In this document: piece after piece, positions 1,697 through 35,250 of the stretch
Layout of the letters: each line of letters starts with the position of its first letter
Numbering within the stretch: the first letter of the stretch is position 1
Source of the DNA: an uncultured Akkermansia sp.
GTDB taxonomy: Bacteria > Verrucomicrobiota > Verrucomicrobiia > Verrucomicrobiales > V1-33
Direction: 5' to 3'
Assembly (NCBI GenBank): GCA_964605435.1
Contig: CAZSDE010000001.1
Span: 1 to 43,310 of the forward strand
Length of the DNA stretch: 43,310 nucleotides
Program-made: the position numbers and the translations under genes
Notes under the pieces: generated by a model
Seen by the model: the letters and a program-made list of their open reading frames with translations, nothing else
The model's database searches: none
What the model was told of the DNA's origin: nothing

Positions 1697-3589
1697 TCAG
1701 AGGGTTACATCGCAATCAGCCGCGGGCCGACCCCGTTCCAGCACAACCGTCAGAATCGCAATGTCCGCCGGCGTCACTCCCTGAATCCTCGCCGCCTGCC
1801 CGAGGGTCCGCGGCCGGATCGACCCCAGCTTCAGCTGCGCCTCCCGCTTCAATCCCCGGACCTCCCCATAATCCAGCCACCCCGGCAATTCCCGGTCCTC
1901 CATCCGCTGGGCCCGGTCCACCATCTCCTGCTGCCGCTCCAGATAGCCCGCGTACTTCACATCGACCTCCAGCAATTCCCAGACTTCCTCCGGAAAACGA
2001 CCCCGCAGCTCCTCCGGGAGCCGACCCCACGAATTCTCCGGACGCCGCATCCACTTCTCCAGCTTCAATCCATCAACCACCGCCTCCCGCGCAACCCGAT
2101 GCGCCGACGCCAGGGCTTCCGCTTTCTGCCGCACCCGCCCCGCCCTCTCCCCATCCACCAGCCCCAACGCCACCGCCTGCGGAGTCAGCCGCAGATCACA
2201 ATTGTCCTGCCGCAGCAGCAAGCGGTACTCGGCCCGACTCGTGAACATCCGGTACGGTTCCATGACGTCCTTCGTCACGAGGTCATCCACCATGACACCA
2301 AGATACGACTCCGACCGCTGCGGGACCCACGCGGCCCGACCCTGCACCTTCAGGGCCGCATTCATTCCCGCCAGCAAACCCTGACCGGCTGCCTCCTCGT
2401 ACCCGGAAGTCCCATTGATCTGCCCGGCGAAATACAGTCCCGAAACCCGCTTGGTCTCAAGGGTTGGATACAGCTGCGTCGGCGGACAGTAATCGTATTC
2501 CACCGCATACCCAGGACGGATGATCTCGGCCTGCGCAAGGCCCGGAACCGACCGGATGAAGGCATACTGCACTTCATAGGGCAGGGAAGTGGATACCCCG
2601 TTCACGTAGTACTCGTTGGTCTGCCGGCCCTCCGGTTCGAGGAACAACTGGTGCTGCGACTTCTCCGCGAAGCGCACCACTTTGTCCTCAATGCTCGGAC
2701 AATAGCGCGGTCCCACGCCCTCGATGATGCCGGCATACATGGGAGACTTGTCCAGATTCGCCCGGATCAGATCGTGCGTCGCGGGCGTTGTGTAGGTAAT
2801 CCAGCAGGGCATTTGTTCCACGTGGAACATCGGGTCGGACCAGCGGTTCAGGGTAAACGGATCGCGCTCATCTCCGCCCAGGGTGTTCCGCAGGTAACTG
2901 AAGGCGGGGGCCGGATCGTCCCCCAGTTGCCGATCGCACTTCCCGAAGTCAATGCTCCGGCCGTTCAACCGGCATGGCGTCCCGGTCTTGAAGCGCCGCA
3001 CTTCGAAGCCAAGCGACCGCAGACTGTCGGAAACCGTGGACACCGCATCCCCCATGCGTCCCCCTGCGGTGTTCCGCAGACCGACATGCAGCAGCCCCCG
3101 CATGAAGGTCCCGGCGCTCAGAACAATCGCCCGGGCTGCCAACCGCATCCCCAGATTGGTCCGCAGACCGCAGACCGCGTCGCCCTCGACCAGCAATTCC
3201 GCCACGTTCCCCTGGTGGAGATCCAGATTCGGAGTGTTCTCGAGCAGCCATTTCATCCGGAACTGATACGCCTTCTTGTCGGCCTGCGCCCGCGGAGCCC
3301 GCACGCTCGGTCCCTTGTTCGCATTGAGCATCCGGAACTGAATCCCCGTGGCATCGGTGTTCAATCCCATGAGACCACCAAGAGCGTCGATCTCCCGCAC
3401 AATGTTCCCCTTGGCCAATCCGCCAATCGCCGGATTGCAGGACATTTGGGAAAGAGTATCCAGATTCTGGGTCAGCAGTGCCACGGAACACCCAAGCCGG
3501 GCAGCCGCGGCGGCTGCCTCCACCCCGGCATGGCCGGCACCAACCACAAGGACATCGTAGGACTTCGGATACAGAAAATCGTTGGGCAT
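1697..3589 (-). CDS. mnmG: tRNA uridine 5-carboxymethylaminomethyl modification enzyme MnmG (GidA)
   Basis: [19 protein letters not shown]-binding fold followed by MnmG blocks throughout ([32 protein letters not shown]). I placed the start at the internal ATG 3589 ([17 protein letters not shown]), giving 630 aa. The longer ORF-track start at 3685 is created by the parS palindrome. Confidence 0.95.
2814..2829. other. parS-type ParB binding site, TGTTCCACGTGGAACA (perfect 16-bp palindrome), inside mnmG
   Basis: Exact palindrome read from the sequence. It matches 14/16 positions of the canonical parS tGTTTCACGTGAAACa, and both arms equal the TGTTCCAC half-site of the B. subtilis spo0J parS. Confidence 0.75.
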
Positions 3590-3668
3590 CGGAAACAAGG
3601 ATTTGCGGACGGGCCGGGAGCATGCCGCAGGCAGGCCACAAGGAAACCGGAAATCAGCGGTCAGCCTT

Positions 3669-3684
3669 TGTTCCACGTGGAACA
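3669..3684. other. parS-type ParB binding site, TGTTCCACGTGGAACA, intergenic upstream of mnmG
   Basis: Second identical copy of the 16-mer, 80 nt upstream of the mnmG ATG. Confidence 0.75.
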
Positions 3685-3729
3685 ATCGGGAACGGCACGA
3701 GCCAACGGCCGCGGCAGCAGGGCAGGGGA

Positions 3730-4569
3730 TCAGTCCCGGTCGAGAATGCCCGTACGACTCCGCGGCAGCAGCTCATCCACGGTGGATTCGAACACCTCAC
3801 CAGCGAGCGTCGCTAGGATCACCTTGAAGGATCCGAACTCGGCCATCACCTGACGGCAGGCACCACACGGCGAAACCGGCAAGCGCGTGTCCGCCACCAC
3901 CGCAATCGCTTCGAACTCCCGGCAGCCTGCCACCACAGCCTGCTGGATGGCATTCCGCTCAGCACAGATGGTCAATCCAAAGCTGAGATTCTCCACGTTG
4001 CAGCCCGGATAAACCTGCCAGCCCTTTCCCAGCAGAGCCGCCCCCACCCGGAACCCGGAGTACGGGGCGTAGGCCCGCAGGCGTGCTTCTTTGGCTGAGT
4101 CGATCAGACTCGCGAATGGATGGGAAATCCTTGGCCCTTCCCAACCCGACGCTTCCGGAGCGCGTGCCTCTCCTTCCGATGGATCGCTTGTTCCTTCGCG
4201 CGGAACGACTGGCAATGCGAGGTCCTCGGCATCTTCCTGCAGTTCCTTTCCGAAGGCCCCCACATACTGCAGTACCTTTCCCGCCTTGTCGGCCGACCAA
4301 CCGAAATGGTTGGCCACTCCCGCAGCATCGAACCCGCGCGATTCCGCCCAGCGCCAGACTTCGGCCATCAGAAGGGAACTTCCCTCGACACCGGCGCGAC
4401 GTCCCGCCCTCGTGTCCAGAAACGAAACCCCGGGAAAAAGACTCTGCCGTCTCGCTTCCTCCAGCAACCTCGCCGCCACCCCACTAAGGCTGCCGCGTCC
4501 CCGATGGAAGCGTTCCAACCATTCCCGGGTTTCCTGGGGCAAGCGCAGGCTGATCGGTTTTGAGTTCAT
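3730..4569 (-). CDS. cdd: cytidine deaminase (tetrameric Cdd type) fused to a ~150-aa N-terminal RHH-like/DUF433-like region
   Basis: The C-terminal ~130 aa carry the Cdd zinc motifs (CAERNAI and PCGACRQV) and [14 protein letters not shown]. The N-terminus begins [18 protein letters not shown]....[11 protein letters not shown], a ribbon-helix-helix-like pattern. There is no in-frame stop and no ATG/GTG between the two parts. ATG at 4569. Confidence 0.8.
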
Positions 4570-4577
4570 GAAATTAC

Positions 4578-4606
4578 AAAGTAATCAAAGTAGCCGAAGT
4601 AAACAA
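4578..4606 (-). promoter_or_regulatory. candidate sigma70-type promoter TTGTTT-17nt-TACTTT, ~8 nt before the cdd-fusion ATG (possible leaderless mRNA)
   Basis: AT-rich 50-nt spacer between the terminator and the ATG. It has no Shine-Dalgarno-like GGAG. Hexamers and spacing were read by eye only. Confidence 0.3.
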
Positions 4607-4619
4607 GCACAGAGACCAT

Positions 4620-4651
4620 AAAAAATCCCGACGGGCAAACACTCCGCCGGG
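4620..4651 (-). terminator. Rho-independent terminator after the CDP-alcohol phosphotransferase gene
   Basis: Minus strand reads CCCGGCGG-AGTGTTTGC-CCGTCGGG-ATTTTTTAT. That is an 8-bp GC-rich stem (one G-U pair), a 9-nt loop and a T6 run, starting 12 nt after the stop at 4664. Confidence 0.7.
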
Positions 4652-4663
4652 ACAGTCCCGTTC

Positions 4664-5395
4664 TCAGGCTTCTCTCTGCCTGAGTTCCCGGAAACTGTTG
4701 ACCGCATAGACCACCAGAAACAGGAAGCACAGACTCTGAAACCCCAGTATAAATTCCCAGTACATCCCAAGGGCCCAACTCAGGGCTATTCCGGTCCGAT
4801 AGGTGATGTCATCGATCACATTCCCCGCCAGGCGACGAACCCGCAGAAAAAACGATGGATTTCGCTGGTCTTCTTCGGTCCGGCGATCGATCTGCGGACT
4901 CAGACTGTCCTTCATCCAGATCAACCCTGTCAGGAGAACCCGTGGACTGAGCGACCACCACAGCAGAAATGGGTGCCACCCGGGAGGCAGCAGTCCGTCG
5001 GCTTTACCGAATGCGGCAATCCCAAGCACGCCGGGCACCACAAGGGATCCGGCAAGGTCGGCACATTTATCCATCAGGAAGCCGGACTGACTGGTCCGCC
5101 CGGTCGCCCGGGCAAGGACACCATCCGCACAGTCGAGGCCATATGCCAGATGAAGGGAACCAAAGAGAAGCACCCCATCGACCACCGGGGAAAACCCGCC
5201 GAAGGCCACGGTGAGCGCCCCGGCCAATCCGGAGAGAAAGGACAGCAGGGTGAGCGTCGCCGGCGACCAGCCCAGACGGTACGCCCCCAGCGCCAGCACG
5301 GCTCCCAGCCGGTACCCGCAATGCAGCGTCAGCCAGAAACTCTGCCGCCCCCGGAAGTGCCAGAAATCCCTGTAGCTCAACTGTCCGCCTTTCAT
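4664..5395 (-). CDS. CDP-alcohol phosphotransferase family membrane protein
   Basis: Perfect D-x2-D-G-x2-A-R-x8-G-x3-D-x3-D motif (DCADGVLARATGRTSQSGFLMDKCAD) with multiple hydrophobic helices. Start taken at ATG 5395 (MKGGQLSY), which forms an ATGA overlap with the upstream stop. Confidence 0.85.
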   Translation of the reverse strand: MKGGQLSYRDFWHFRGRQSFWLTLHCGYRLGAVLALGAYRLGWSPATLTLLSFLSGLAGALTVAFGGFSPVVDGVLLFGSLHLAYGLDCADGVLARATGRTSQSGFLMDKCADLAGSLVVPGVLGIAAFGKADGLLPPGWHPFLLWWSLSPRVLLTGLIWMKDSLSPQIDRRTEEDQRNPSFFLRVRRLAGNVIDDITYRTGIALSWALGMYWEFILGFQSLCFLFLVVYAVNSFRELRQREA

Positions 5396-6138
5396 GGTTG
5401 CTTCGTCGCGCCCCAATCGTCCGGAAACATCCGCAGGGCGGCTTCATAATCTTCCGGGAAATCAATCTCCCGCCACGGCCAGTCCCCCGTATCGAAAACG
5501 GACAGCACCAACTCTCCGTCATCCACCATTTCCTGCAGCGCTGCCTCCACAAAGCACTGGAATTCACCGCGGCCGAGAATCCGCTCAGTGGCCTCTCGCA
5601 GGCAGGGCAGGGTACTTGCCGAAAAGCGAGCCAGCCCAAGGAATTCCCCGGCGGCTTCGCCCGGCGGCATCGTCTTATTGAGACGGTCTACGCTCCCATC
5701 CGCCGCCAGCGTGTACTTCATTTCCTCCTCCCCACAGACCTTGCGGTCGACCGCAAGGACCGCTTCGCCTGCTTCCATGGCTGCCAGACCGGCCAGAATC
5801 TGCGGGGCGAACACGGTATCGGCATGAAGATAAAGAAAGTCCCCGCGCAGAAACGGCAGCGCACACCAGAACGACACCAGCACGTTGCTCGTGCGGTAGA
5901 ATGGATTGAAGACCTGGCGGATTCCGGAATCCGGGAAGTCGGCCGCAAAGCGCTCCCGCTGATGCCCGGTCACGAGGACGATTTCAGAAACCCCGACGTC
6001 CCGCAGGAGACGGATGTTCCGCTCCAGCAGGGTCTCCCCACCAAGCCGCAGGTACGACTTGGGAAGCCCACCGGAAGTTCCCGCAATCCGATTCCCCACT
6101 CCCGCCGCCAGTACGACTGCCTGCTTCGCCTGATTCAT
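5392..6138 (-). CDS. nucleotidyltransferase (LicC/IPCT-like, probable cytidylyltransferase)
   Basis: N-terminal VVLAAGVGNR...LPK P-loop of the NTP_transferase fold and a C-terminal W.EIDFPEDY motif typical of LicC/IPCT-like enzymes. ATGA overlaps with neighbours at both ends. Confidence 0.8.
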   Translation of the reverse strand: MNQAKQAVVLAAGVGNRIAGTSGGLPKSYLRLGGETLLERNIRLLRDVGVSEIVLVTGHQRERFAADFPDSGIRQVFNPFYRTSNVLVSFWCALPFLRGDFLYLHADTVFAPQILAGLAAMEAGEAVLAVDRKVCGEEEMKYTLAADGSVDRLNKTMPPGEAAGEFLGLARFSASTLPCLREATERILGRGEFQCFVEAALQEMVDDGELVLSVFDTGDWPWREIDFPEDYEAALRMFPDDWGATKQP

Positions 6139-7268
6139 TCTGGTTCCTCCATCGATTCAAGATAAAGACTGCTGAGGGCTTCCCGGGAATGATCGCAGGG
6201 ATCCACAGCCAGATTCCCCCGTACGCCGGCCACCAGTCCCGGAACATCACTGTCCTGCACACCTAGACTCCGCAGCCCCCGTGCCAAACCATGGCGCTTC
6301 ATCCATCCGATCAGCGCCTCCGCACCAGCTTCGGCACCATTCACCCCAAGGCACTGGCCAAGAAACCGGAATGGTTCCGGCTCCACCCGTGCAGCCCGCC
6401 GCAGCCACGCCGGATAAAGTGCCGCCAGGCCCGCCGGGTGCGAACGATCCGTCAGCGCACCCACGGGATACTGCAGCCGATGCGGCAGACACGTGGAACT
6501 GCAGGCCAGATTCCAACCCATGAGCGCACTGGCCAGCGCCAGCGCCCGCCGCGGCCCGGGAGCGCCGGAATCCGCCAGCCGCGCAGGCAATTCCCTCACC
6601 ACCACCGCCAGCGCATGACGTGCGTGAATTTCCACCAGCGCCGAACTCCGCCGCGAAACCCACGTCTCAAGGGCATGAGTGAGCACATCAAAGCCTGTTT
6701 CCGCCGCCGTCTCACGCGGCAGGGTCGCACTCAGTTCGGGATCAATCAGCGCCACCCGCGGAGCCAGCCCCGGCCCGCGCAGACCATGCTTCAGCCCCAT
6801 CCCGTCATCACTCAGAATCGCCGCCTCGCTGGTCTCGCTCCCGGTTCCCGCGGTCGTCGGAACGGCAATCACGGGCACGGTCCCGACCCCCACGGACTCG
6901 TCGCGCGCCAGCACACCAGCAACATCCACCCCCGCCAGCGCCGCCGCCACCGCCTTGGCCGCATCCAGCGCACTGCCACCACCCAGCCCAATCACCGCGC
7001 CCACTCCCTCCGACCGCCCCAACGCGGCCGCCGCCAGAACTTCCGCAAGGCGCGGATTCGGGGACACGCCCGCAAAAACCACACAGCGCCGCGGTGCTAC
7101 CGCCCGCGCAAGGCGCTCCACATACCCCTCCCGCACCGCACTCGTGCGCCCAGTCACCACCAGAAACGGCCCCGGAAATGGAATCAGTTCCCCACAGCGG
7201 TCAAGTAATCCATCGCCGCAATGCAGCCGCGTCTCGCTGCGGAACGAAAATGTCCACGGATCCATCAT
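6135..7268 (-). CDS. iron-containing (group III) alcohol dehydrogenase family protein
   Basis: GLGGGSALDAAKA and AVPTTAGTGSETS motifs. Start set at the ATGATG at 7268 (MMDPWTF), 5 nt after the upstream kinase stop. The longer ORF-track N-terminus is G/A-rich and overlaps the kinase gene. Confidence 0.85.
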   Translation of the reverse strand: MMDPWTFSFRSETRLHCGDGLLDRCGELIPFPGPFLVVTGRTSAVREGYVERLARAVAPRRCVVFAGVSPNPRLAEVLAAAALGRSEGVGAVIGLGGGSALDAAKAVAAALAGVDVAGVLARDESVGVGTVPVIAVPTTAGTGSETSEAAILSDDGMGLKHGLRGPGLAPRVALIDPELSATLPRETAAETGFDVLTHALETWVSRRSSALVEIHARHALAVVVRELPARLADSGAPGPRRALALASALMGWNLACSSTCLPHRLQYPVGALTDRSHPAGLAALYPAWLRRAARVEPEPFRFLGQCLGVNGAEAGAEALIGWMKRHGLARGLRSLGVQDSDVPGLVAGVRGNLAVDPCDHSREALSSLYLESMEEPE

Positions 7269-7273
7269 CACAG

Positions 7274-8779
7274 TCACAGATTGCTGACAACGGTTGCTGA
7301 GTCCGCAGGCAGCCGCGCCATCAAGTCCCGTCTTCTCGCGAACAATGGACGGCATGATGCATACAGCTCCTGCTGCAGCGCCATCAGTTCCCGGTACACC
7401 CCCGCAAGTCGCTCCCGGGGCCACACGGTTTCCCGGACCCGGATCAGGCCCGCGGCTTCTTCCGCCGAATCCAGCACCCCCAGCGCCAGCCAACTCAGAA
7501 TCGCGGCCCCCAGCGCCGTGCTCTCGAATTCCTCGTTCACCTCAACGGCCATGCCCAGCACATCCGCCTTCAACTGCGTCACCAGGGGAATGCGCGTCAA
7601 TCCCCCACTCAGCCGGATCCGCTCCACCGTACCCACCGCCGCCTGCAGCGGATCAAACAACGCCGCCGTGGCGAGCGCACATCCCTCCATGACCGCACGC
7701 GCCATCTCCCGCCGGCCATGCCGACGCTCCAGTCCAAAGAAGACTCCCCTCACTTCATCATCCCACAAGGGAGCCCGCTCGCCCATCAGATAGGGAAGAA
7801 AAACCAGTCCGCCCGCCGCCGCCCCGGCCGCCACCGCTTCCCGCTCCATCATCCCATACGCTTCCGTCTCCGCGCCATAAAATCCCTGGCGCAGCCACTC
7901 CACCAATCCCCCGCCCAGGTTGTTCGATCCCCCGACCAGATACCGTCCGGTCGCTCCCTCCCATTGACGCTGAATGCCCCCATCGACAGCACCAACCGAA
8001 GCCACGGCCACCCGCAGCGATGTCACCGTCCCGGAAACATCGCAGACCACCCCCTCCATCCCCCCACCAGTCCCAAAAACTCCGCAGACCGCATCGTAAC
8101 CAGTCACCACCACCGGAACCTCCCGCCCATCCATGCCCACCGCCTCCGCCACGGAAGCCTGTACCGTCCCTGCCACTGTCAGCATCGGAACCACCGGGGT
8201 GAGCCGATCCACACCGAGGCCCAGCGACTCCATCAACCCCTCCGGATATTTCCCGGCGTCGACATCGTAGCCAGCCTTGGCCGCATCCAGCGGATCGGTC
8301 ACCGCCCGCCCCGTCAACCGCCCCACCAGCCAGCCATTGCTCGTCAGAAACCTCCGCGCGGCCCGCCAGCGCTCCGGCTCATTCTCCTGCAGCCACCGCA
8401 ACCGCGGGGCCATCATCGATGCGTCCATCCGCCCAACCCAGCGCTCGCCCCGCCCCAGTTCCTCCGCCTCCCCGGCCGCCCGCTTGTCGGCCACCAGCAT
8501 CGCCCTCCCCAGAACTCCGCCCCGCTCATCCTCACACACCAGATTACAGGCCGATGTCGTCACCGTCACCGCCGACAATCCCCTGCGTGTCCCGTCCACC
8601 GCCATCGCTTCCCGGAACAGGATCACCGCCATCCGCCACCATTCCTCCGGATCCTGCCCCACCTTCTCCCCGTCAAGAAAGGTCTCCACCTCACGCGACG
8701 CCACAAATACCCGTTCCCCGAGACGGTCAAAAACAACCACCCGCAGACTCTTCAATCCAAGATTCAAAACCAGAATCAT
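7274..8779 (-). CDS. FGGY-family carbohydrate/polyol kinase
   Basis: 501 aa with FGGY N- and C-domain patterns (LGLKSLRVVVFD; FLPYLMGERAPLWDDEVRGVFFGL; RIRLSGGLTR...Q..AD). Substrate not identifiable by eye. Confidence 0.85.
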   Translation of the reverse strand: MILVLNLGLKSLRVVVFDRLGERVFVASREVETFLDGEKVGQDPEEWWRMAVILFREAMAVDGTRRGLSAVTVTTSACNLVCEDERGGVLGRAMLVADKRAAGEAEELGRGERWVGRMDASMMAPRLRWLQENEPERWRAARRFLTSNGWLVGRLTGRAVTDPLDAAKAGYDVDAGKYPEGLMESLGLGVDRLTPVVPMLTVAGTVQASVAEAVGMDGREVPVVVTGYDAVCGVFGTGGGMEGVVCDVSGTVTSLRVAVASVGAVDGGIQRQWEGATGRYLVGGSNNLGGGLVEWLRQGFYGAETEAYGMMEREAVAAGAAAGGLVFLPYLMGERAPLWDDEVRGVFFGLERRHGRREMARAVMEGCALATAALFDPLQAAVGTVERIRLSGGLTRIPLVTQLKADVLGMAVEVNEEFESTALGAAILSWLALGVLDSAEEAAGLIRVRETVWPRERLAGVYRELMALQQELYASCRPLFARRRDLMARLPADSATVVSNL

Positions 8780-8792
8780 CGCGTCTGCAGTG

Positions 8793-9611
8793 TCATAGCC
8801 CTCCCAGAAGACGGAGCACCGGAAGCACCGCTTCCCGTACCTCCCGCACGGATCCGTCCAGCCCGGCGGTCACCCGGTAAGGATGCGCCGATGCCAGCTG
8901 CGCCCGCTGCGCTGCCAGCCACCCATCCTTCAAACGGGTGGAAATGTTGACTTTGCGCACGCCACCCCGACGCACCGCCCGCACCACATCAGCTTCCGCA
9001 ATCCCCGTACCTCCATGCAGCACCAAGGGAACCGACGGCCTCTCGGCATGCACCCTTTCCAGCAGATCATGCCGCAGCTCGCACGGCCGGTCCCCATAAT
9101 GCCCATGCCGCGTCCCCACCCCCACCGCCACCATCGCGGCACCACTCTCATCCATGAACCGCAGCACCTCAGCCACCCGCGGCATCACTGCCTCGTCCCC
9201 ATAAACCGCAAACCCATCTTCCTCTCCGCCCACTACCCCGATCTCTCCCTCGACGAGGGCACCATAACGCGCCGCAAGTTCCACCACGGCCCTCGTCTCC
9301 CGGATGTTCTCCTCCAGCGGCAACCCACTCGCATCCATCATCACACTGTCCCACCCAGCCTCCAGACAATCCCGGATCATCCCCACGTCCCCGCAATGAT
9401 CCAAATGCAGCTTCACCCGCCCACGCAATCCCTCCGGCACCAGCGCCCGCACCATCCCTCCAAGCACCCCCGCCGAATAAAACCGCACCGTCGCCGCCGA
9501 CGTCTGCAGAAAACAGCCTCCCCCAGCCTCCTCAACCCCAGCCACCACCCCAAGCACCGTCTCCGCATTGAACACGTTGAAGGCCGCCACCGCTCGATCC
9601 GGAAATTTCAC
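8793..9611 (-). CDS. class II (metal-dependent) ketose-bisphosphate aldolase family protein
   Basis: AFNVFNAE..., HLDHC, GEIG..GGEEDG, THGHY and LVLHGGTG blocks of FBA class II/GatY/KbaY-type aldolases. GTG start at 9611, preceded by a G7 run, with an in-frame TGA just upstream. Confidence 0.8.
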   Translation of the reverse strand: MKFPDRAVAAFNVFNAETVLGVVAGVEEAGGGCFLQTSAATVRFYSAGVLGGMVRALVPEGLRGRVKLHLDHCGDVGMIRDCLEAGWDSVMMDASGLPLEENIRETRAVVELAARYGALVEGEIGVVGGEEDGFAVYGDEAVMPRVAEVLRFMDESGAAMVAVGVGTRHGHYGDRPCELRHDLLERVHAERPSVPLVLHGGTGIAEADVVRAVRRGGVRKVNISTRLKDGWLAAQRAQLASAHPYRVTAGLDGSVREVREAVLPVLRLLGGL

Positions 9612-9690
9612 CCCCCCAACTCACACCCACACACATGAGCCGAACATTAGGAAACGGAGTTCATGAGTTCTCAGTCACAATTTCGTGGCC

Positions 9691-9720
9691 AAAAAAAGGG
9701 AGGTCACCCGAGCCGACCCC
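9691..9720 (-). terminator. possible intrinsic terminator at the end of the long glycan operon
   Basis: Minus strand reads GGGGTC-GGCTCGGGT-GACCTCCC-TTTTTTT. The stem is 6 bp with one bulge, overlaps the TGA stop (9704-9706), and is followed by T7. Confidence 0.4.
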
Positions 9721-10459
9721 AGAATTCCTTCCATGGATGCACCATCCACGCTCCCGCGCGGACCAGTTCATCGATCCCATCCGGCGGTCGACCCGATGGC
9801 TTCACAAAGACTGACTGGTCCGCCAGATTCCGCACCCGGTACCCCAGATGATGCGCAAGGGTCGGAATGATCACCTCGAGATAGAATGCCGCCCCCTCTT
9901 CCACAGCGGCCACCGCTTCAAAGGCATCACGACGCCAGAAAGACACACATCCCAGCATCGCCAGCGCCACCCCACCCTCAGCACGCACACTGACCCGACC
10001 CACCAGCCCGCGAAACCCCGCGTCTGCCTCATGGTACAGAAAATGAGGATGATTCGTCCCGTCAATCCGCTCCACCCCGCACCCCAGCACATCCGCTTCC
10101 TCCGCTGCCATCCGCTCCCGCAGCAGTTCCACCAGATCCCGGCGCAGCGGAATGCAGTCGAACTCCGCAAACAAGACCGTCTCATACTGCTCCCGACTCG
10201 CGAGCCAGCCACGGATGGCCCGGAACACCCCATGAAATGACTGCCTCTCCCGCTGGTGATCACTCGTCCGCAGCCGGCCATCCACCACCAGCACCGCCTC
10301 GCTCACTCCCACCCCAGCCAATTCCGCAAAGGCTGCCTCCGACCCACCATACACCACAAGGACATCGCTGCCCCCGCAGAAATCGCGCCACCACGCCACC
10401 ATCCGACCCACCTCAGCGGGAGTCTGATGCGTCAGGATCGCTGTGAGATGACGGTTCAT
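9704..10459 (-). CDS. hypothetical protein, last gene of the glycan operon (possibly GT-A-like; function unknown)
   Basis: Coding-like G/C-ending codon usage. Start set at ATG 10459 (MNRHLTAILTHQTPAEV). I could not recognise any family signature with confidence. Confidence 0.55.
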   Translation of the reverse strand: MNRHLTAILTHQTPAEVGRMVAWWRDFCGGSDVLVVYGGSEAAFAELAGVGVSEAVLVVDGRLRTSDHQRERQSFHGVFRAIRGWLASREQYETVLFAEFDCIPLRRDLVELLRERMAAEEADVLGCGVERIDGTNHPHFLYHEADAGFRGLVGRVSVRAEGGVALAMLGCVSFWRRDAFEAVAAVEEGAAFYLEVIIPTLAHHLGYRVRNLADQSVFVKPSGRPPDGIDELVRAGAWMVHPWKEFWGRLG

Positions 10460-10730
10460 GCGGAAAATCCGGCTCGGGATGGGAAGAAAATCCCAGTTCC
10501 TGACGCCAGTACGTGAGCCGCTCCTGCGGCAGAAAATGCGGCCGCAGCCTTGCCTCCTCCAACCCAATCACATGCAGCCGACCACGCCACGGCAGCACTA
10601 GGGCCTTGCCCGCACAGCGCCCTGTCCGCTGATCCGTGATCCGCGCCCCGAAAACACCCACCGCCAGACGAAGCACCACCTTGCCCAGCCGCTTCAGCAA
10701 TCTAGCCATAAAATAAAGTCGTCCCCGCAT
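10413..10730 (-). CDS. small hypothetical protein (uncertain)
   Basis: 105-aa ORF (alternative ATG at 10709, MARLLKRLGK...) with host-like G-ending codon bias. It fills the gap after the Wzy-like gene. Its 3' end overlaps the next gene by 47 nt in another frame. Confidence 0.35.
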   Translation of the reverse strand: MRGRLYFMARLLKRLGKVVLRLAVGVFGARITDQRTGRCAGKALVLPWRGRLHVIGLEEARLRPHFLPQERLTYWRQELGFSSHPEPDFPHEPSSHSDPDASDSR

Positions 10731-10771
10731 TCCCAGCCCTCAGCGGGAATCTCTGGAGAACCGAGTTCCAT

Positions 10772-12355
10772 TCACACCCGCGCCGGAGCCCCCATGCCAG
10801 CCGGCCGCGGCCGCCGCGCCACCGGTTCCGGCCGCGCCGCCTCAGGCTCGCGCTCCGGAATCGCCAGCCGCGCCAGTTCCTCCTCCTCGCGGCGATAGAT
10901 CATCAGCGCCCCCACCACGCTGAACATGAACCAGATGAAGAAATTCACAGGGTACGTCGACAGCTGCGCCCCATTGGCCAGACCACCTGCGGTGACACTC
11001 AAGGCCGCCGCCAGACACCCCGCCGCCATGTCCCGAACCAACCCTGGTGGTTCCTCGAAAATAAACCGATGCATCCGGCTCAGCATCCATCCGGCCATCC
11101 CCAGCGCCACGAAGATCGGCACATACCCATACCGCAGCAGCGTGTCCGTGAAAAGGTCGTGCGACTCCACCTGCGACAGCACCGCCTTCTCATTGTATGA
11201 ACTGAACCGCAATCCCAGCGGCGTCCACACCTTCGAATTGGTCACCAGCGCGTTGAAGCCCTCCAGACGGTCGTTGAGCGTGGAGATATTCGTGGTCTGA
11301 CTCCACTCGTCCGTCCGCTTCTGACTGTAGATGTCCTCACTGATCTTGTTCAGAATCTTATGACGCAGCAGATACGGCGAGGCGAGCACAATCGCCACCA
11401 CCGCCGCCAGCGAAAGCGCATAGCCCGCCACCGTCAGAAAGCGTCGCTTGAAAAACCACACGGCCACAATCGCCACCACGCAACTCACCCAGCCCATCCG
11501 GCTGAACGTTCCATACATCGCCACCCCGATCGGAATGATGAGCAGAAACCGGCTCACCGGATTGCTCTGCCGCTCATAGGGCGGATCACTCCGGTATTTC
11601 CATACCCCGGAACAGATCAAGGCCAGCATCAGTCCGAAAACCGATGACGCATTCGCCGCCGAATTCATCGTCCCGAAAAACCGGAACTGCCGCTCCATGA
11701 GCTGGCGGATCTCCCCAGTCAGGCCGCTCTTCAGATAGTCCATCTCCCAATCGAACACACTCCCCCGGAAGAAGTGGATCAGCAGGTAGATGATCGCCGG
11801 AATGTAAATGATGATGCAGGCCTTGAGCAGCTTCTTCAGCTCTCCGGGCGTCTGAAACAAAGCCGGCACCGTGAAGAGCAGCAGCAGATAAATTGCCGCA
11901 TTGACCCCATCGCCCAGACTCCGGAATCCCCCACGGTTGCCCGTCAGCGACAGCACCAGCAGCAAAGCCGACGCCCCCACACTCACAAAGGTCAGCAGCA
12001 ATTGGCCCGGACGCGGCACCGTCCTTCCGATGAACTGCTGGTAGATCACACTCACCGCAATCCCCACGAGCGTGCATGGCGCAATTCCCAGCACATAATA
12101 CAGATCCAACCGGCTCAGACCCGAATCGAAAATCATGAGCCGCTTGAAGTAATCAAGGTAGGCCGTCAGAAACAGCAGCACGTAAAACGCCTTCCGGGGA
12201 TTCAGCAGGCCATACACCCCGCTCGCCACCATCATGTACATGTACGACCGCGCCACGGCGTTGCCGCCCGACGTGAAAATGTCAAAGGCCACCCACAAGG
12301 CCGCAAAAAGCAGCGCAAACGTGGCGAAGATCCGGACAATGGCGTTGCTGTTCAT
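10772..12355 (-). CDS. O-antigen polymerase/ligase-like (Wzy-type) polytopic membrane protein
   Basis: About 10 or more hydrophobic segments. The central FSRMGWVSCVVAIVAVWFF resembles the Wzy_C/O-antigen ligase block. Proline/arginine-rich cytoplasmic tail. ATG at 12355 (the ORF-track start at 12367 is TTG). Confidence 0.65.
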   Translation of the reverse strand: MNSNAIVRIFATFALLFAALWVAFDIFTSGGNAVARSYMYMMVASGVYGLLNPRKAFYVLLFLTAYLDYFKRLMIFDSGLSRLDLYYVLGIAPCTLVGIAVSVIYQQFIGRTVPRPGQLLLTFVSVGASALLLVLSLTGNRGGFRSLGDGVNAAIYLLLLFTVPALFQTPGELKKLLKACIIIYIPAIIYLLIHFFRGSVFDWEMDYLKSGLTGEIRQLMERQFRFFGTMNSAANASSVFGLMLALICSGVWKYRSDPPYERQSNPVSRFLLIIPIGVAMYGTFSRMGWVSCVVAIVAVWFFKRRFLTVAGYALSLAAVVAIVLASPYLLRHKILNKISEDIYSQKRTDEWSQTTNISTLNDRLEGFNALVTNSKVWTPLGLRFSSYNEKAVLSQVESHDLFTDTLLRYGYVPIFVALGMAGWMLSRMHRFIFEEPPGLVRDMAAGCLAAALSVTAGGLANGAQLSTYPVNFFIWFMFSVVGALMIYRREEEELARLAIPEREPEAARPEPVARRPRPAGMGAPARV

Positions 12356-12438
12356 ATCAAGGGGCAACCCGGATCACGGCTCCGGATCAGTCGCCTCATT
12401 AACGGAAATTCCCGCGGCTTCCAACCGCAAATCCTCGC

Positions 12439-14355
12439 TCAGATCCGGATCCCGGGAGACAACTGCAGCCACCGCAGGAAACACAGCGTCCGCCAGAAAC
12501 TGTGGTCGTTCCCCGTCCGGCCTGCGAGCGTCCGCTCCCACAGCCTCCGCAGCCCCGCCGGATCAATCACCGCGGCAGCCTCCGCGGGAACCGACCCCAG
12601 AATCTCCTCCACCCACGGCCGCGCCTCGGCCAGCATGAGATTCCCGGGCGTATGAAACCCAATCTTGTCGCGCCGATCCAGAATCGCATCAGGGACAAGT
12701 CCCCGCATGGCTTCCCGGAACACCCGCTTCATGGTCCCATCTCCCCCTACAAGGTATTCCTCGGGCAACGAGAGCGCAAACTCGGCAAAGTCGACATGCA
12801 GAAACGGGACCCGGCTCTCCACAGACCACGCCATCGAATTCCGGTCCTCGAAATGCAGCAGCTGCGGAATGATGGTCCGGCTCAGTGTGTCCGCGAGCAC
12901 CCCCCGCATCCCATGGCCGTCCAGTTCGGCCTCGAGCCGACCCGTCCGCACTCCCGCAAAATACTCCCGCCGCATCCACGACGGCAGCAGTTCCTTCCCC
13001 ACCAGATGCCGCCCGGCATCGGCCACCCACCGGGGCAGCACATGACCCGCAGCCTGAAACCACGCACTCATGTGACCGCCTCCCGCATTCCGCCGCGACC
13101 CCCACAGCCTCGCCACCGCGCCCCACTCTCCTCTCCGCATCATCCCAGCCAGCCTCGCGGCAAAATAAATCGAATACCCCGCGAGCGTCTCGTCCCCACC
13201 CTGGCCATCCAGCACCACCGGAATCCCCACCTCCCGCACCTTCCGGAAAATCCGGTACTGCGCATAAATGCTCGTGCTCCCAAACGGTTCACCCTGCACC
13301 CGGATCAGCTCGTCAAGGTCCGCGGCCAGCTCAGCCGCCGTGAAATCGACGGTGTGCAGCTGCACCCGCGCACGATCCGCTGCCATCCTCGCCCAGCGTT
13401 CCTCACTCAGCGCAAAACCCTCGGGAACATAACTGAAGGCATGAATCTCCGCATCGGGCTCCAGCTTGCGCATGCACGCCACAATCGCCGACGAATCAAT
13501 CCCCCCGGATAAGGCCGCCCCCACCGGCACATCACTCCGCAGATGCAGCCGCACGCTCTCCAGAAACCGTTCCCGGATTCCCTCGGCCGCCTCCGCAAAG
13601 GAAATGCGCTGCGGCTCCGCAAGGGCAGGGGACCAGTACCGCACCGGTTCCCCAATCTTCGCCGCATCGATTTTCACCTTCACCCAATGACCCGGCGGCA
13701 GCTGCATCACCCCGCGGTGGAAGGTCGTCCGCCCGTCGTCGGATACCCCGAACCGCAGAAACTGATACACCACCTGAGGATCCAGTGGACCCCCGTCGAC
13801 TCCCAGACTCCGCAGGGTCTGCAGCTCGGACGCAAAAACGACCCCGCCGCCCGACTCCGCAAGATACAACGGCTTGATCCCGAAAGGATCCCGCCCCAGC
13901 AGGACCTCGCCGGCTTCCACATCCAGAAACGCAAAGGCAAACATCCCGCGCAGCAGCGGCAAGGCCGCCGCCCCACGCTGCCTCAGCAGCTCCAGCAGCA
14001 CTTCCGTGTCGGTCTCGGTCCGGAAAACTACCCCACCGGCTTCCAGCCCGGCCCGCAGTTCACGGTAATTGTAGATCTCTCCATTGAAACAAACGGCATG
14101 CTTCCCGTCCACCGTCAGCATCGGCTGGCGCCCCCGCGGCGAAAGATCCAGAATCGATAGCCTCCGGTGCGCCATCACCACCGATCCATCCCCAGACGGC
14201 ACCTCCGCACTCACCTCCGGCCGACCGCCCGGCCGCCAGACCAGAAACGCCCCGTCATCCGGCCCACGATGCCGCATGCCGGACGCCGCCGCCCCCAGCC
14301 GCTCCCTCACAGCAACGCTGCCGTTGCCCCCGATGACTCCCGCAATCCCGCACAT
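12439..14355 (-). CDS. asnB: asparagine synthase (glutamine-hydrolysing) family amidotransferase, paralog 1
   Basis: MCGIAG N-terminal nucleophile, GATase-II domain, and the SGGIDSS PP-loop of the AsnB synthetase domain. Confidence 0.9.
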   Translation of the reverse strand: MCGIAGVIGGNGSVAVRERLGAAASGMRHRGPDDGAFLVWRPGGRPEVSAEVPSGDGSVVMAHRRLSILDLSPRGRQPMLTVDGKHAVCFNGEIYNYRELRAGLEAGGVVFRTETDTEVLLELLRQRGAAALPLLRGMFAFAFLDVEAGEVLLGRDPFGIKPLYLAESGGGVVFASELQTLRSLGVDGGPLDPQVVYQFLRFGVSDDGRTTFHRGVMQLPPGHWVKVKIDAAKIGEPVRYWSPALAEPQRISFAEAAEGIRERFLESVRLHLRSDVPVGAALSGGIDSSAIVACMRKLEPDAEIHAFSYVPEGFALSEERWARMAADRARVQLHTVDFTAAELAADLDELIRVQGEPFGSTSIYAQYRIFRKVREVGIPVVLDGQGGDETLAGYSIYFAARLAGMMRRGEWGAVARLWGSRRNAGGGHMSAWFQAAGHVLPRWVADAGRHLVGKELLPSWMRREYFAGVRTGRLEAELDGHGMRGVLADTLSRTIIPQLLHFEDRNSMAWSVESRVPFLHVDFAEFALSLPEEYLVGGDGTMKRVFREAMRGLVPDAILDRRDKIGFHTPGNLMLAEARPWVEEILGSVPAEAAAVIDPAGLRRLWERTLAGRTGNDHSFWRTLCFLRWLQLSPGIRI

Positions 14356-14369
14356 GACAATGAAACCAA

Positions 14370-26833: not shown

Positions 26834-26878
26834 GGCAGTGGAATGGTCAGGGATGTTTTACAGGGAAGAAAGGGCCAG

Positions 26879-27529
26879 TCAGCGGGCCGCCGACTTGAAT
26901 TCGTCGTATGAAAGTGTTCCCGCCGCAAGCTCGGGGGGCAGGGGATCGTCTTCCCCAAGGGTGAGACACCGGACCACGCCGTCCCGCAGTTCATAGACAA
27001 AGCCCGATTCCGGACAACGGGCCTGCCCGTCCGACCCGAACTGCAGCCGATGCCCATGCCGGCTCATCCATCCACTCAGCCGCCCCGGCACTCCCATCAC
27101 GAAACCATAGTCGGGCACGTCCTTGGCCACCACCGCCCCGGCCGCCACAAAGCTGTACCGCCCCAGGGTGATCCCGCATACAATGGTCGCATTCGCTCCC
27201 ACGGTCGTCCCCCGCCGGATCAGGGTCCTTTCATAAAGACTGTGCCGCTTCACCTGACTCCTCGGGTTGGTGACATTGGTAAGCACACACGAAGGCCCAA
27301 GGAAGACGTCGTCCTCCACCACGGTCCCGGTGTAGATGGCCACATTGTTCTGCACCTTCACATTGGAACCAATCACGACGTCGTTCGCCACCATCGTGTT
27401 CTGACCAAAGATGCAGTTCTCCCCGATGCGGGCTCCAGGACAGATGTGCGCAAAATGCCAGATCTTCGTCCCCTCGCCAATGGTGACCGGAGCATCGATG
27501 ACGGCAGTCGGATGGGCATAGTATGGCAT
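26879..27529 (-). CDS. wbpD: left-handed beta-helix N-acetyltransferase, WbpD/WlbB-like (UDP-2-acetamido-3-amino-2,3-dideoxy-glucuronate N-acetyltransferase)
   Basis: MPYYAHPTAVID...IWHFAHI..GARIG...NPRS...GANATIVCG...GVPGR..GWMS..G..L is collinear with the WbpD/WlbB sequences I recall, including the distinctive C-terminal tail. ATG at 27529. Confidence 0.8.
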   Translation of the reverse strand: MPYYAHPTAVIDAPVTIGEGTKIWHFAHICPGARIGENCIFGQNTMVANDVVIGSNVKVQNNVAIYTGTVVEDDVFLGPSCVLTNVTNPRSQVKRHSLYERTLIRRGTTVGANATIVCGITLGRYSFVAAGAVVAKDVPDYGFVMGVPGRLSGWMSRHGHRLQFGSDGQARCPESGFVYELRDGVVRCLTLGEDDPLPPELAAGTLSYDEFKSAAR

Positions 27530-27542
27530 GGCTGAGAGAAAT

Positions 27543-35219: not shown

Positions 35220-35250
35220 GAGTTCGGGTAAATTCCTCTGCGCTCCCACC

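Follow-up and report, generated by a model that had tools for sequence, protein, structure and literature searches.

A conserved seven-gene block in Verrucomicrobiales and its possible role in CDP-polyol synthesis and glycan decoration

Gene content of the locus

The window (i.e., the whole stretch of DNA analysed, 43,310 nucleotides) carries a polysaccharide locus of 30 kb that shares its strand with a cassette of five genes. ORF coordinates, Pfam gathering cut-offs and a direct reading of the junctions agreed with the original prediction on the layout of this cassette: five minus-strand ORFs (8793-9611, 7274-8779, 6135-7268, 5392-6138 and 4664-5395), with gaps of 13 nt (8780-8792) and 5 nt (7269-7273) according to the ORF coordinates, and ATGA start/stop overlaps at 6135-6138 and 5392-5395 as read directly in the sequence. 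All five products scored above the Pfam gathering cut-offs (PF01116, PF00370 plus PF02782, PF00465, PF12804 and PF01066), and none reached an NCBIfam equivalog cut-off, so that no substrate is assigned by homology.

The first gene (8793..9611, minus strand) encodes a class II metal-dependent ketose-phosphate aldolase of 272 aa (PF01116, 217 bits), for which the nearest structure is KbaY (8q57) and in which the catalytic motifs LHLDH, EGEIG, GGEEDG, GTRHG, LVLHGGTG and KVNIST are present. In FBP aldolases, a conserved C-terminal arginine (R331 in E. coli FbaA) binds the distal phosphate; this C-terminal “DPR” arginine is not conserved in the cassette aldolases, which fits a ketose-1-phosphate substrate. 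The second gene (7274..8779, minus strand) encodes a 501-aa FGGY-family kinase (PF00370, 102 bits; PF02782, 118 bits) that belongs to a distinct subfamily carrying LVLNLGLKSxR as its N-terminal motif. It fell under the cut-offs of the NCBIfam XylB, GntK and GlpK models, with higher scores for the xylulokinase and gluconokinase models than for glycerol kinase. The third product, a group-III iron-type alcohol dehydrogenase (Fe-ADH) of 377 aa (6135..7268, minus strand, ATG at 7268; PF00465, 129.5 bits; PF25137, 76.6 bits), has conserved metal ligands (D-x3-H, H-x13-H) and a conserved GGGS motif. The arginine adjoining its metal-binding histidine (LPHRLQYP) is invariant throughout the cassette family, which suggests an anionic, already phosphorylated substrate. 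Were this substrate a phosphorylated triose, the kinase would be hard to explain, since GAP and DHAP are central metabolites.

The fourth gene (5392..6138, minus strand) encodes a LicC/IPCT/PntC-type nucleotidyltransferase of 248 aa (PF12804, 58.9 bits). Its best PDB matches (PntC 6pd1, 4jd0, LicC 1jyk and IPCT 2xme) are cytidylyltransferases, in line with its earlier assignment to the LicC/IPCT type, and every one of these closest solved structures belongs to an enzyme whose product is a small head group linked to CMP or CDP; the protein is a putative polyol-phosphate cytidylyltransferase. The last product (4664..5395, minus strand) is an integral membrane CDP-alcohol phosphotransferase of 243 aa (PF01066, 31.2 bits), in which the predicted family motif is intact (D88-x2-D91-G92-x2-A95-R96-x8-G105-x3-D109-x3-D113) and all eight of its residues are invariant in 15 relatives. 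Its AF2 model is all-helical (pLDDT 85) and closest to IPCT-DIPPS (4mnd) and AF2299 (4o6m), with TM scores of 0.58-0.65; both of these enzymes use soluble acceptors rather than diacylglycerol (DAG), and the donor of IPCT-DIPPS is a small soluble CDP-alcohol. Two PIP synthases, 5d92 and 6h59, are likewise neighbors, by structure as well as by sequence.

The unit closes, as claimed, with a strong intrinsic terminator on the minus strand 12 nt past the last stop (4620..4653), which combines a 12-pair stem (4625-4653) and a U6 run (4620-4625), with a folding energy of -25.3 kcal/mol (z = -3.66; 1 of 200 shuffled sequences was as stable). A simple pattern scan missed this element.

A seven-gene block conserved in Verrucomicrobiales

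The five genes belong to a conserved seven-gene module, in the order Wzy-like protein, GT-A-fold protein, aldolase, FGGY kinase, Fe-ADH, nucleotidyltransferase and CDP-alcohol phosphotransferase. The same order, at ~50-60% identity and with differing flanks, was found on independent Verrucomicrobiales contigs (L001, L004, L012, L015 and L016), and L017 retains the block with the GT-A gene missing. The Wzy-like membrane protein accompanies the five genes in every sufficiently long Verrucomicrobiales relative, and the GT-A-fold protein does so in all of them except L017, such that the expected co-conservation of the cassette in relatives was borne out. No large polysaccharide locus is visible around the block in L001 and L004, and a GDPD glycerophosphodiesterase gene follows the CDP-alcohol phosphotransferase gene in L004 and L006. 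No isomerase, epimerase or transporter that would handle an unusual ketose is conserved with the block.

The outermost partner (10772..12367, minus strand) is a polytopic membrane protein of 531 aa with about 9 or more hydrophobic segments (hydropathy) and a Pfam Wzy_C match of 26.1 bits, under the 31.7 cut-off. Its orthologues (54-98% identity) lie directly 5' of the block in L001, L004, L010-L012, L015 and L016, the L017 counterpart being a 28% relative, and we consider it a putative glycan polymerase or ligase. The other partner (9704..10459, minus strand; ~251 aa from M37, with the ORF open to 10567) has no fitting Pfam family beyond a weak PF12804 match, and its 129 homologues are all unnamed or “hypothetical”, the few with an organism name coming from Verrucomicrobiota. 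Its AF2 model (pLDDT 93) matched GT-A glycosyltransferases in Foldseek, with GT31 B3GalT5 and B3GNT2 on top (TM 0.57-0.62), and E99-x-D101 is invariant among its homologues. The protein is probably a glycosyltransferase of a Verrucomicrobiota-specific family.

The five genes had been described as a self-contained operon, set apart from the upstream glycan operon by that operon's own stop and T-run; neither part of this description was confirmed. A T7 run is indeed present on the minus strand at 9700..9720, where a pattern scan placed a weak hairpin overlapping the GT-A gene stop codon, but this hairpin (-10.5 kcal/mol, z = +1.18) was matched or exceeded in stability by 183 of 200 shuffled sequences, which makes the element doubtful as a terminator. 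In L001 and L004, moreover, the GT-A gene stops 4 nt 5' of the aldolase gene. The five genes thus form the distal part of two larger units, the seven-gene block conserved in relatives and an extensive polysaccharide locus, and with a NusG-like gene (34680-35249) at the head of the entire minus-strand polysaccharide locus, read-through into them from upstream is plausible.

The cassette outside Verrucomicrobiales

Beyond this order, we read seven contexts (a Vibrio, a Pseudomonadales MAG, a Lachnospiraceae contig and four unassigned metagenome contigs), all of them polysaccharide or glycopolymer loci, and all seven keep the trio of FGGY kinase, Fe-ADH and nucleotidyltransferase. The FGGY relatives (37-42% identity) always adjoin the other two genes. 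The Vibrio breoganii strain of L029 is one isolate that bears the cassette. The transferase varies, being PF04464 TagF-like in five loci and a CDP-alcohol phosphotransferase in one, and the aldolase is present in three of the seven, with a second count giving it as “absent in 3 of 7”. The aldolase is therefore an optional accessory of the cassette and the transferase is swappable: the proposed operon membership of the aldolase stands at this locus and does not extend to some of the outside loci. In one relative (P0097) the kinase and the dehydrogenase are fused, with a nucleotidyltransferase and a CDP-alcohol phosphotransferase downstream, which suggests that they act on consecutive steps. More distant pairs of CDP-alcohol phosphotransferase and nucleotidyltransferase likewise occur in loci of the polysaccharide or exosortase type, where their neighbors include Wzy, flippase and glycosyltransferase genes. 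We found no paper describing the trio, and no assignment of the cluster to a known route.

Nucleotidyltransferase orthologues (34-57% identity) occur in every cassette locus, and the fusions of this family bear on the polyol. Among members of about 34-40% identity, P0345 (BLASTP 34% identity across the whole domain, E = 2e-39) is fused to the glycerol-3-P dehydrogenase GpsA (NF000942, 392 bits), in three others the fusion partner is a TagF-like domain, and the family is also found fused to an ABC ATPase. In Micromonosporaceae, relatives of the nucleotidyltransferase and of the CDP-alcohol phosphotransferase flank a glycerol-1-P-dehydrogenase-like gene (NF002022, 267 bits). The original prediction held that the substrate could not be named from sequence, which stands as far as homology is concerned; these fusions and neighborhoods nevertheless narrow it towards glycerol phosphate, with the proviso that the relatives in question are only about 30-35% identical and could differ in substrate.

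A putative CDP-polyol pathway for glycan decoration

Taken at the level of sequence and gene context, the best reading is that the module activates a small polyol phosphate with CDP and links it to a glycan of the cell surface (probability about 0.6), as a phospho-polyol decoration rather than as part of a new phospholipid. Within a module that builds a glycan, the five genes would be the arm responsible for donor synthesis and transfer. The Fe-ADH would reduce and the FGGY kinase phosphorylate a small carbonyl compound in consecutive steps, in either order, to give a polyol phosphate. This is most likely an isomer of glycerol phosphate not directly available from central metabolism (glycerol-2-P or sn-glycerol-1-P). 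The nucleotidyltransferase would join this to CTP to give a CDP-polyol, from which the CDP-alcohol phosphotransferase may transfer the polyol-phosphate onto a hydroxyl, most likely of a lipid-linked glycan unit, at the cytoplasmic membrane face with release of CMP. The aldolase could be an optional feeder, providing a carbonyl precursor (triose or short aldehyde) or a ketose-1-phosphate from DHAP, and the GT-A-fold and Wzy-like proteins would contribute the sugar part and its polymerisation or ligation. All contexts, fusions and motifs found agree with the predicted general logic, in which a kinase and then a nucleotidyltransferase provide a CDP-activated polyol for transfer of the phospho-alcohol.

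With the same pathway logic, the activated alcohol might instead be a C4-C6 alditol phosphate (tetritol, pentitol, hexitol or deoxy-alditol), which we see as possible, if clearly less probable. Here the kinase would phosphorylate a free ketose, or the aldolase would build a ketose-1-phosphate from DHAP and an aldehyde, and the Fe-ADH would reduce the keto group on the way to a CDP-alditol. The kinase's preference for xylulokinase and gluconokinase models, the missing distal-phosphate arginine of the aldolases and the invariant Fe-ADH arginine, which fits a phosphorylated keto substrate (i.e., kinase before reductase), all agree with this, and an optional aldolase would suit de novo versus salvage supply of one ketose-1-phosphate. 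TagF-like enzymes use CDP-ribitol too. CDP-ribitol, CDP-arabinitol and CDP-glucitol offer precedents (PMC1391919). However, the fusion and neighbor partners of the nucleotidyltransferase family form glycerol phosphate, a GDPD gene adjoins the transferase in L004, and the block has no conserved ketose isomerase, epimerase or transporter.

The alternatives to glycan decoration concern the transferase. CDP-alcohol phosphotransferases are classically lipid-synthesis enzymes, as are nearly all characterised PF01066 members, and we know of none characterised that decorates a glycan; with motif and fold intact, the protein might move the phospho-polyol onto DAG in a Kennedy-type reaction, and the new head-group lipid might then act extracellularly as a donor or anchor. 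The L001 and L004 blocks, outside any obvious large polysaccharide locus, and a Wzy/WaaL-like protein that could take a lipid-linked donor are compatible with this option, which the original prediction had also offered. We regard it as rather unlikely, because the trio pairs elsewhere with soluble or peripheral TagF-like glycerophosphotransferases in polysaccharide loci; the block itself includes GT-A and Wzy-like proteins, the distant pairs lie in polysaccharide and exosortase loci, and the closest folds have soluble acceptors. Those same IPCT/DIPPS and AF2299 neighbors, best in both NCBIfam and structure, and the IPCT-DIPPS-like pairing of the last two genes could point to a compatible solute (of the DIP, diglycerol-phosphate or glycerophospho-inositol type), formed as a phosphodiester osmolyte from a CDP-polyol and a second polyol phosphate. 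This appears highly improbable given the consistent linkage to Wzy-like, glycosyltransferase and flippase genes, hosts that are mesophilic freshwater or soil Verrucomicrobiales, and a window and conserved block that hold neither an inositol-phosphate synthase nor a dedicated phosphatase. The PIP synthase neighbors, finally, would allow a PgsA/PIP-synthase-like reaction, with the polyol phosphate from aldolase, kinase and dehydrogenase as acceptor for CDP-diacylglycerol and a separate role for the nucleotidyltransferase. Such an arrangement is very unlikely: the nucleotidyltransferase is the tightest conserved partner of the kinase and dehydrogenase, it stays even with a TagF-like transferase, which needs a CDP-polyol donor, and its gene is translationally coupled to that of the CDP-alcohol phosphotransferase through the ATGA overlap.

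Gene content and conservation of the cassette

All five minus-strand genes were recovered with the family assignments of the original prediction, and each protein scored above its Pfam gathering cut-off: a class II aldolase (8793-9611, 272 aa with a GTG start; PF01116, 217 bits), an FGGY kinase (7274-8779, 501 aa; FGGY_N PF00370, 102 bits, and FGGY_C PF02782, 118 bits), a group-III Fe-ADH (6135-7268, 377 aa from the ATG at 7268; PF00465, 129.5 bits, and ADH_Fe_C PF25137, 76.6 bits), an NTP transferase (5392-6138, 248 aa; NTP_transf_3 PF12804, 58.9 bits for a cut-off of 27), and a CDP-alcohol phosphotransferase (CDP-OH PT; 4664-5395, 243 aa; CDP-OH_P_transf PF01066, 31.2 bits for a cut-off of 22). 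The gaps of 13 and 5 nt predicted at the first two junctions agree with the ORF coordinates, and the two ATGA overlaps were seen by direct reading of the sequence.

The description of these genes as a self-contained unit did not hold, as a larger block is conserved, in the order Wzy-like membrane protein (10772-12367 in the window, minus strand), ~250-aa protein (9704-10459, minus strand), aldolase, FGGY kinase, Fe-ADH, NTP transferase and CDP-OH PT. Conservation of the gene neighbourhood was found across relatives, with this block in one order in every Verrucomicrobiales contig of sufficient length (genome scan and tblastn synteny table). It is near-identical to that of the window in two loci (L010, L011), and in others it is about 50-60% identical and flanked by other genes (L001, which is on the same contig as L014; L004, L012, L015 and L016). 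In a further locus (L017) the block is retained, its Wzy-like gene is divergent, and a second Wzy/TPR-type membrane protein takes the place of the ~250-aa gene, which is missing. L017 also carries an inserted ORF between the aldolase and FGGY genes (5718-6449), with the glycine-rich EFGSGSG motif of SAM-dependent methyltransferases, a methyltransferase-like call made by eye from the translation.

The ~250-aa protein belongs to no Pfam family, and its homologues are all unnamed or hypothetical, the few with an organism name being from Verrucomicrobiota. Its structural model (pLDDT 93) has the GT-A fold, with GT31 glycosyltransferases as the nearest structures (TM about 0.6), its E-x-D motif is invariant, and its gene stops 4 nt ahead of the aldolase gene in L001 and L004.

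More broadly, the window represents a roughly 30-kb minus-strand polysaccharide locus, which includes a NusG-like gene at its head, Glf, Ugd, WbpB/E/D-like proteins, acyltransferases, an MBOAT protein, two AsnB-like proteins, a Wzx flippase, a GT4 and the Wzy-like protein. The AsnB-like amidotransferases (12439-14355 and 18238-20106, minus strand), along with a GFO/IDH/MocA oxidoreductase, a DegT aminotransferase and a hexapeptide acetyltransferase (25646-31176, minus strand), supply the genes for making 2,3-diacetamido-uronic acids and for amidating them. An Acyl_transf_3 protein also accompanies the MBOAT protein in this locus, and one AsnB gene adjoins the Wzy-like gene in L010, L011 and L015-L017 as well.

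Transcript ends

The predicted closing terminator is well supported by folding against shuffles: a 12-pair stem (4625-4653) precedes a U6 run, with a free energy of -25.3 kcal/mol (z = -3.66). A terminator had likewise been proposed for the upstream operon (9700-9720), where a T7 run is present, but the hairpin (-10.5 kcal/mol, z = +1.18) is no better than shuffles. Taken together, this weak hairpin, the strong terminator at 4620-4653 and the NusG-like gene at the head of the locus suggest that the cassette may be transcribed by read-through from upstream. No riboswitch or leader was detected at E <= 1 (Rfam scan of 4400-11000), and a promoter scan of 3500-11500 returned no sigma-70 match. GC content is uniform over the whole window (0.59-0.68), and this composition gives no sign of recent acquisition.

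The NusG-like gene is a NusG/KOW paralogue (34680-35249, minus strand), next to a weak MarR-like match (35251-35769, minus strand; 25.9 bits, just below the 27-bit Pfam cut-off), an arrangement that resembles the RfaH/UpxY-type antitermination of long glycan operons. Further down the locus, a 312-nt non-coding gap (10460-10771) separates the Wzy-like gene from the probable true start of the GT-A gene (M37, at 10459); the GT-A ORF stays open upstream to 10567, and its homologues begin at the M37 position. The promoter of a six-gene unit could lie in this gap.

Protein families and specificity

None of the five cassette proteins reached an NCBIfam equivalog cut-off. The aldolase scored 177.9 bits against the FBP aldolase equivalog (cut-off 343), the NTP transferase 52 bits against IPCT/DIPPS (cut-off 580), and the CDP-OH PT 27 bits against archaetidylinositol-phosphate synthase (cut-off 180). 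The Fe-ADH was matched by ErcA (160 bits, cut-off 550) and by the phosphonate-cluster alcohol dehydrogenase TIGR03405 (147 bits, cut-off 424). For the FGGY kinase, XylB was best (189 bits, cut-off 380), followed by GntK (169 bits) and GlpK (129 bits), and no named specificity scored above its cut-off (XylB, GlpK, GntK, FucK, AraB, LsrK). All five are clear family members with intact catalytic residues.

The CDP-OH PT motif D-x2-D-G-x2-A-R-x8-G-x3-D-x3-D stood up to alignment, with D88, D91, G92, A95, R96, G105, D109 and D113 invariant in 15 sequences. The AF2 model is all-helical (pLDDT 85) and its top Foldseek matches are all CDP-OH PTs (TM 0.5-0.65), the closest being Archaeoglobus fulgidus IPCT-DIPPS and AF2299 (TM 0.58-0.65), ahead of CDP-DAG-dependent PIP synthases. 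The donor of IPCT-DIPPS is a small soluble CDP-alcohol.

A LicC/IPCT-type fold had also been proposed for the NTP transferase, and the evidence agrees: in the alignment of cassette members the N-terminal (L/I)xAAGxGxR loop and a Lys are conserved (VLAAGVGNR...PK), and PF12804 scores above cut-off. A PDB search gave PntC (6pd1, best), 4jd0, LicC (1jyk) and IPCT (2xme) as nearest solved relatives, each of which loads small phospho- or phosphono-head groups onto CMP. Cluster-member names among the NTP transferase relatives were generic only. We infer CTP as its probable nucleotide solely from the CDP-needing partner enzymes (PF01066, PF04464) and these nearest relatives.

In the aldolases, motifs LHLDH, EGEIG, GGEEDG, GTRHG and LVLHGG are conserved (the Asp-His pair, further His ligands and the Glu loop), and the C-terminal "DPR" Arg, which binds the distal phosphate in FBP aldolases, is not conserved in the cassette members. 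In the Fe-ADH, the GGGS NAD(P) motif (GGGSALD) and the four metal ligands (D-x3-H, H-x13-H) are conserved, and an Arg adjoining a metal-binding His is invariant. The FGGY kinase has both FGGY domains and the catalytic Asp, with conserved YDAIC and SGGL motifs. Its first phosphate motif reads LVLN(L/M)G(L/M)KSxR in all cassette kinases (7274-8779 of the window, L004, L012, L015, L017 and L029-L035), such that N-L-G-L-K-S replaces D-x-G-T-x-S, with an Asn where a Mg-binding Asp is usual. This motif recalls the N-terminus of acetate kinases, and marks a distinct FGGY subfamily.

A kinase, reductase and NTP transferase core outside Verrucomicrobiales

There are many FGGY relatives in the 37-42% identity range, and we examined seven of their contexts outside Verrucomicrobiales (Vibrio, a Pseudomonadales MAG, a Lachnospiraceae contig and four unassigned metagenome contigs). 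In all seven, the kinase gene is adjoined by an Fe-ADH and an orthologous NTP transferase gene (34-57% identity), in loci carrying polysaccharide or glycopolymer genes; kinase, reductase and NTP transferase thus form the core of the cassette. The order is aldolase-FGGY-ADH-NTP in Vibrio breoganii (L029, where the contig then ends), the same followed by PF04464 in the Pseudomonadales MAG (L031), and FGGY-ADH-NTP-PF04464 in Lachnospiraceae (L030), where a 338-aa protein at the aldolase position matched no family. Two metagenome contigs (L033, L034) have FGGY-ADH-NTP with PF04464 close by and without the aldolase, and a third (L035) has PF04464-FGGY-NTP-aldolase-ADH. Finally, a marine metagenome contig (L032) encodes an FGGY::Fe-ADH fusion (P0097, 816 aa, 286-2736), followed by NTP transferase, CDP-OH PT and PfkB genes. 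The 3.9-kb Vibrio cassette had no match among 5,426 E. coli genomes, and the FGGY protein of the window had no plasmid match at E <= 1e-40.

Since the aldolase is missing from some of these contexts, it is accessory, and the fusion of FGGY kinase and Fe-ADH points to consecutive kinase and reductase steps. The partner phosphotransferase is interchangeable, being a TagF-like enzyme (PF04464) in some loci and a CDP-alcohol phosphotransferase (PF01066) in others. As both families need a CDP-linked polyol-type donor, this provides the best available argument that the NTP transferase makes an activated alcohol, CDP-X.

More distant pairs of CDP-OH PT and NTP transferase are found in polysaccharide or exosortase loci as well (L007, and L027 from Rubritalea). 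In the latter (uncultured Rubritalea, 4739-14688), exosortase EpsH, DUF3485 and a Wzy_C protein are immediately preceded by a weak choline-kinase-like gene together with GTs, a methyltransferase, AsnB, the NTP transferase and the CDP-OH PT, an arrangement that ties a Kennedy-like triad to an EPS locus of the PEP-CTERM/exosortase type.

Comparison with known pathways

Phospho-polyol side groups such as glycerol phosphate and ribitol phosphate shape the charge and antigenicity of surface glycans, as well as their recognition by phages and the immune system. To our knowledge, pathways to their donors are few: TagD, TarIJ, Gtp1-3 and a few others. Our data indicate a distinct donor cassette, composed of an FGGY kinase, an Fe-ADH and a LicC-like NTP transferase, with the class II aldolase optional. 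By sequence and context the cassette would fall within the nucleotide-activated polyol-phosphate decoration of glycans; what is unusual is that the donor would be reached through FGGY and Fe-ADH enzymes, and that a PF01066 enzyme occupies the normal position of a TagF-like enzyme. A full-text literature search, with most subscription journals outside its coverage, retrieved no paper on this set of genes.

In logic, the known system nearest to the cassette is that of pneumococcal Gtp1-3 and WchX, compared here by logic and annotation rather than by sequence. Its CDP-2-glycerol pathway (Gtp1/Gtp2/Gtp3) is reportedly the subject of a 2010 paper by Wang et al. (J Bacteriol 192:5506). Like the cassette, it pairs a reductase, a kinase and a cytidylyltransferase toward a non-standard CDP-glycerol, with an adjoining phosphotransferase gene in a polysaccharide locus, and its product is a polyol phosphate borne as a side group of the repeat unit. 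Roles of the Gtp1-3 and WchX genes are listed in three papers (PMC1391919, PMC3493582, PMC5581491), with Gtp annotations that include "glycerol-2-phosphate dehydrogenase" and "phosphotransferase" (PMC3493582), and WchX being a putative glycerol phosphotransferase by annotation only (PMC3493582). These annotations suggest families other than the PF00465 and FGGY of the cassette; the Gtp set also has no aldolase, and WchX is not described as a CDP-alcohol phosphotransferase.

Teichoic-acid-type pathways (TarI/TarJ, TagD, TagF/TarL) likewise transfer a CDP-activated polyol phosphate to a glycopolymer, and share the PF04464 TagF-like enzyme with five other cassette loci. The cassette differs in its reductase, a group-III Fe-ADH rather than a TarJ-type MDR, in the added kinase and often aldolase, and in the PF01066 transferase of the window. 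The canonical TagD route to CDP-glycerol and TarIJ route to CDP-ribitol were ruled out from their missing domains: the Pfam scan of window ORFs detected neither TagD-type PF01467 nor PF04464, the latter occurring only in the other cassette loci. IPCT/DIPPS and AF2299 of Archaeoglobus (with CDP-inositol or CDP-glycerol donors) provide the best structural and NCBIfam matches, and combine, as here, a LicC-like cytidylyltransferase with a CDP-alcohol phosphotransferase, although the cassette has separate genes rather than a fusion, in a glycan rather than an osmolyte context. An inositol-phosphate synthase had been noted as lacking, and Pfam scans of the window agree (no MIPS domain); with scores also far below cut-off, the di-myo-inositol-phosphate route was ruled out.

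The sequence of kinase, cytidylyltransferase and phospho-alcohol transfer is shared with Kennedy and Lic pathways (LicA-LicC-LicD; choline kinase, CCT, CPT), whereas the cassette kinase is of the FGGY type instead of the choline-kinase/APH fold, its reductase is obligatory, and its head group would be a polyol, where those pathways use an amino alcohol. A phosphonate pathway, to which PntC as best PDB match and the TIGR03405 score of the Fe-ADH might point, was excluded, as all scores are below cut-off and neither PEP mutase nor (phosphonopyruvate) decarboxylase was found in any scanned window ORF. Kinase, aldolase and Fe-ADH also sit side by side in FucK/FucA/FucO, yet the FucA aldolase is from another family (PF00596, vs. 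PF01116 here), and pure sugar catabolism of this kind was ruled out because the kinase and ADH are tied to the NTP transferase and glycan genes, and never to transporters or isomerases, in the seven contexts.

Identity of the activated alcohol

An exhaustive HMMER search placed the NTP transferase in a family of 114 clusters (50% identity, E <= 1e-30), in which one member (P0345) is fused to a GpsA glycerol-3-phosphate dehydrogenase (NF000942, 392 bits, above cut-off), its NTP transferase domain being 34% identical full-length (E = 2e-39). The gene that lies between relatives of the NTP transferase and of the CDP-OH PT in Micromonosporaceae best matches glycerol-1-phosphate dehydrogenase (NF002022, 267 bits). 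The family is thus coupled to glycerol-phosphate-forming enzymes in two independent ways, as seen in relatives about 30-35% identical. A GDPD glycerophosphodiesterase gene follows the CDP-OH PT in L004 and L006, and lends weak further support to glycerol phosphate in the case of L004. Other fusions join the NTP transferase domain to TagF-like domains (P0348, P0391, P0413) or to an ABC ATPase (P0408). The Micromonosporaceae triad (L024, 7946-10624; also L019, L021, L025 and L026) suggests a CDP-sn-1-glycerol route in actinomycetes.

If X is a glycerol phosphate, sn-glycerol-3-P is already a central metabolite and requires neither kinase nor ADH, so that the cassette most plausibly makes another isomer. 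Candidates are glycerol-2-P, by analogy with the pneumococcal reductase/kinase/cytidylyltransferase route, and sn-glycerol-1-P, the isomer given by D-glyceraldehyde-3-P reduction on stereochemical reasoning. A C4-C6 alditol phosphate is a serious alternative to all of these: the FGGY kinase is nearer to xylulo- and gluconokinases than to GlpK, the invariant Arg by the metal-binding His of the Fe-ADH suggests an already phosphorylated substrate, and aldolases without the conserved C-terminal Arg fit ketose-1-phosphates.

Proposed pathway

Drawing on sequence, structure prediction and gene context, we infer the following scheme. Where present, the aldolase would supply a short carbonyl precursor or a ketose-1-phosphate, which the Fe-ADH and FGGY kinase would convert to a polyol phosphate; the NTP transferase would then add CMP from CTP. 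The membrane CDP-OH PT is predicted to transfer the polyol phosphate to an acceptor hydroxyl at the inner membrane face, and the GT-A and Wzy-like proteins may build the glycan and then polymerise or ligate it. It is tempting to speculate, at a probability of only about 15%, that the trio makes a previously undescribed nucleotide-activated polyol (e.g., CDP-sn-1-glycerol via glyceraldehyde-3-P reduction, CDP-tetritol or CDP-deoxyalditol), from which the Verrucomicrobiales CDP-OH PT, working with the new GT-A enzyme and a Wzy-like partner, would assemble or prime a teichoic-acid-like polymer of glycosyl-polyol-phosphate in a diderm.

The CDP-alcohol phosphotransferase family has been associated chiefly with the synthesis of phospholipids and of archaeal osmolytes (DIP), and the loci described here suggest that its members can replace TagF-like enzymes in glycan decoration. 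If true, this would widen the functional range of PF01066, provide a new enzymatic CDP-polyol route for chemo-enzymatic glycan synthesis, and improve the annotation of the cassette proteins, at present entered as "xylulokinase", "alcohol dehydrogenase" or "phosphocholine cytidylyltransferase family protein".

Sequences beyond the terminator

Just beyond the cassette terminator, a minus-strand gene (3730-4569) encodes a cytidine/deoxycytidylate deaminase domain (residues 155-253) after a 150-aa N-terminal extension without an assigned role, and is kept as a neighbour only in the close relatives L010 and L011. CMP would be the by-product of the CDP-OH PT reaction, and a link to this gene is probably coincidental. 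A perfect 16-nt palindrome, TGTTCCACGTGGAACA, occurs twice, within the mnmG/gidA coding region (2814-2829) and at the mnmG/gidA 5' end (3669-3684), for 0.01 occurrences expected from shuffles. Its flanks are conserved only to about 19 nt, and it accounts for the "MFHVEQ" peptide that recurs in spurious ORFs. The palindrome may be a short dispersed repeat or the binding site of a protein.
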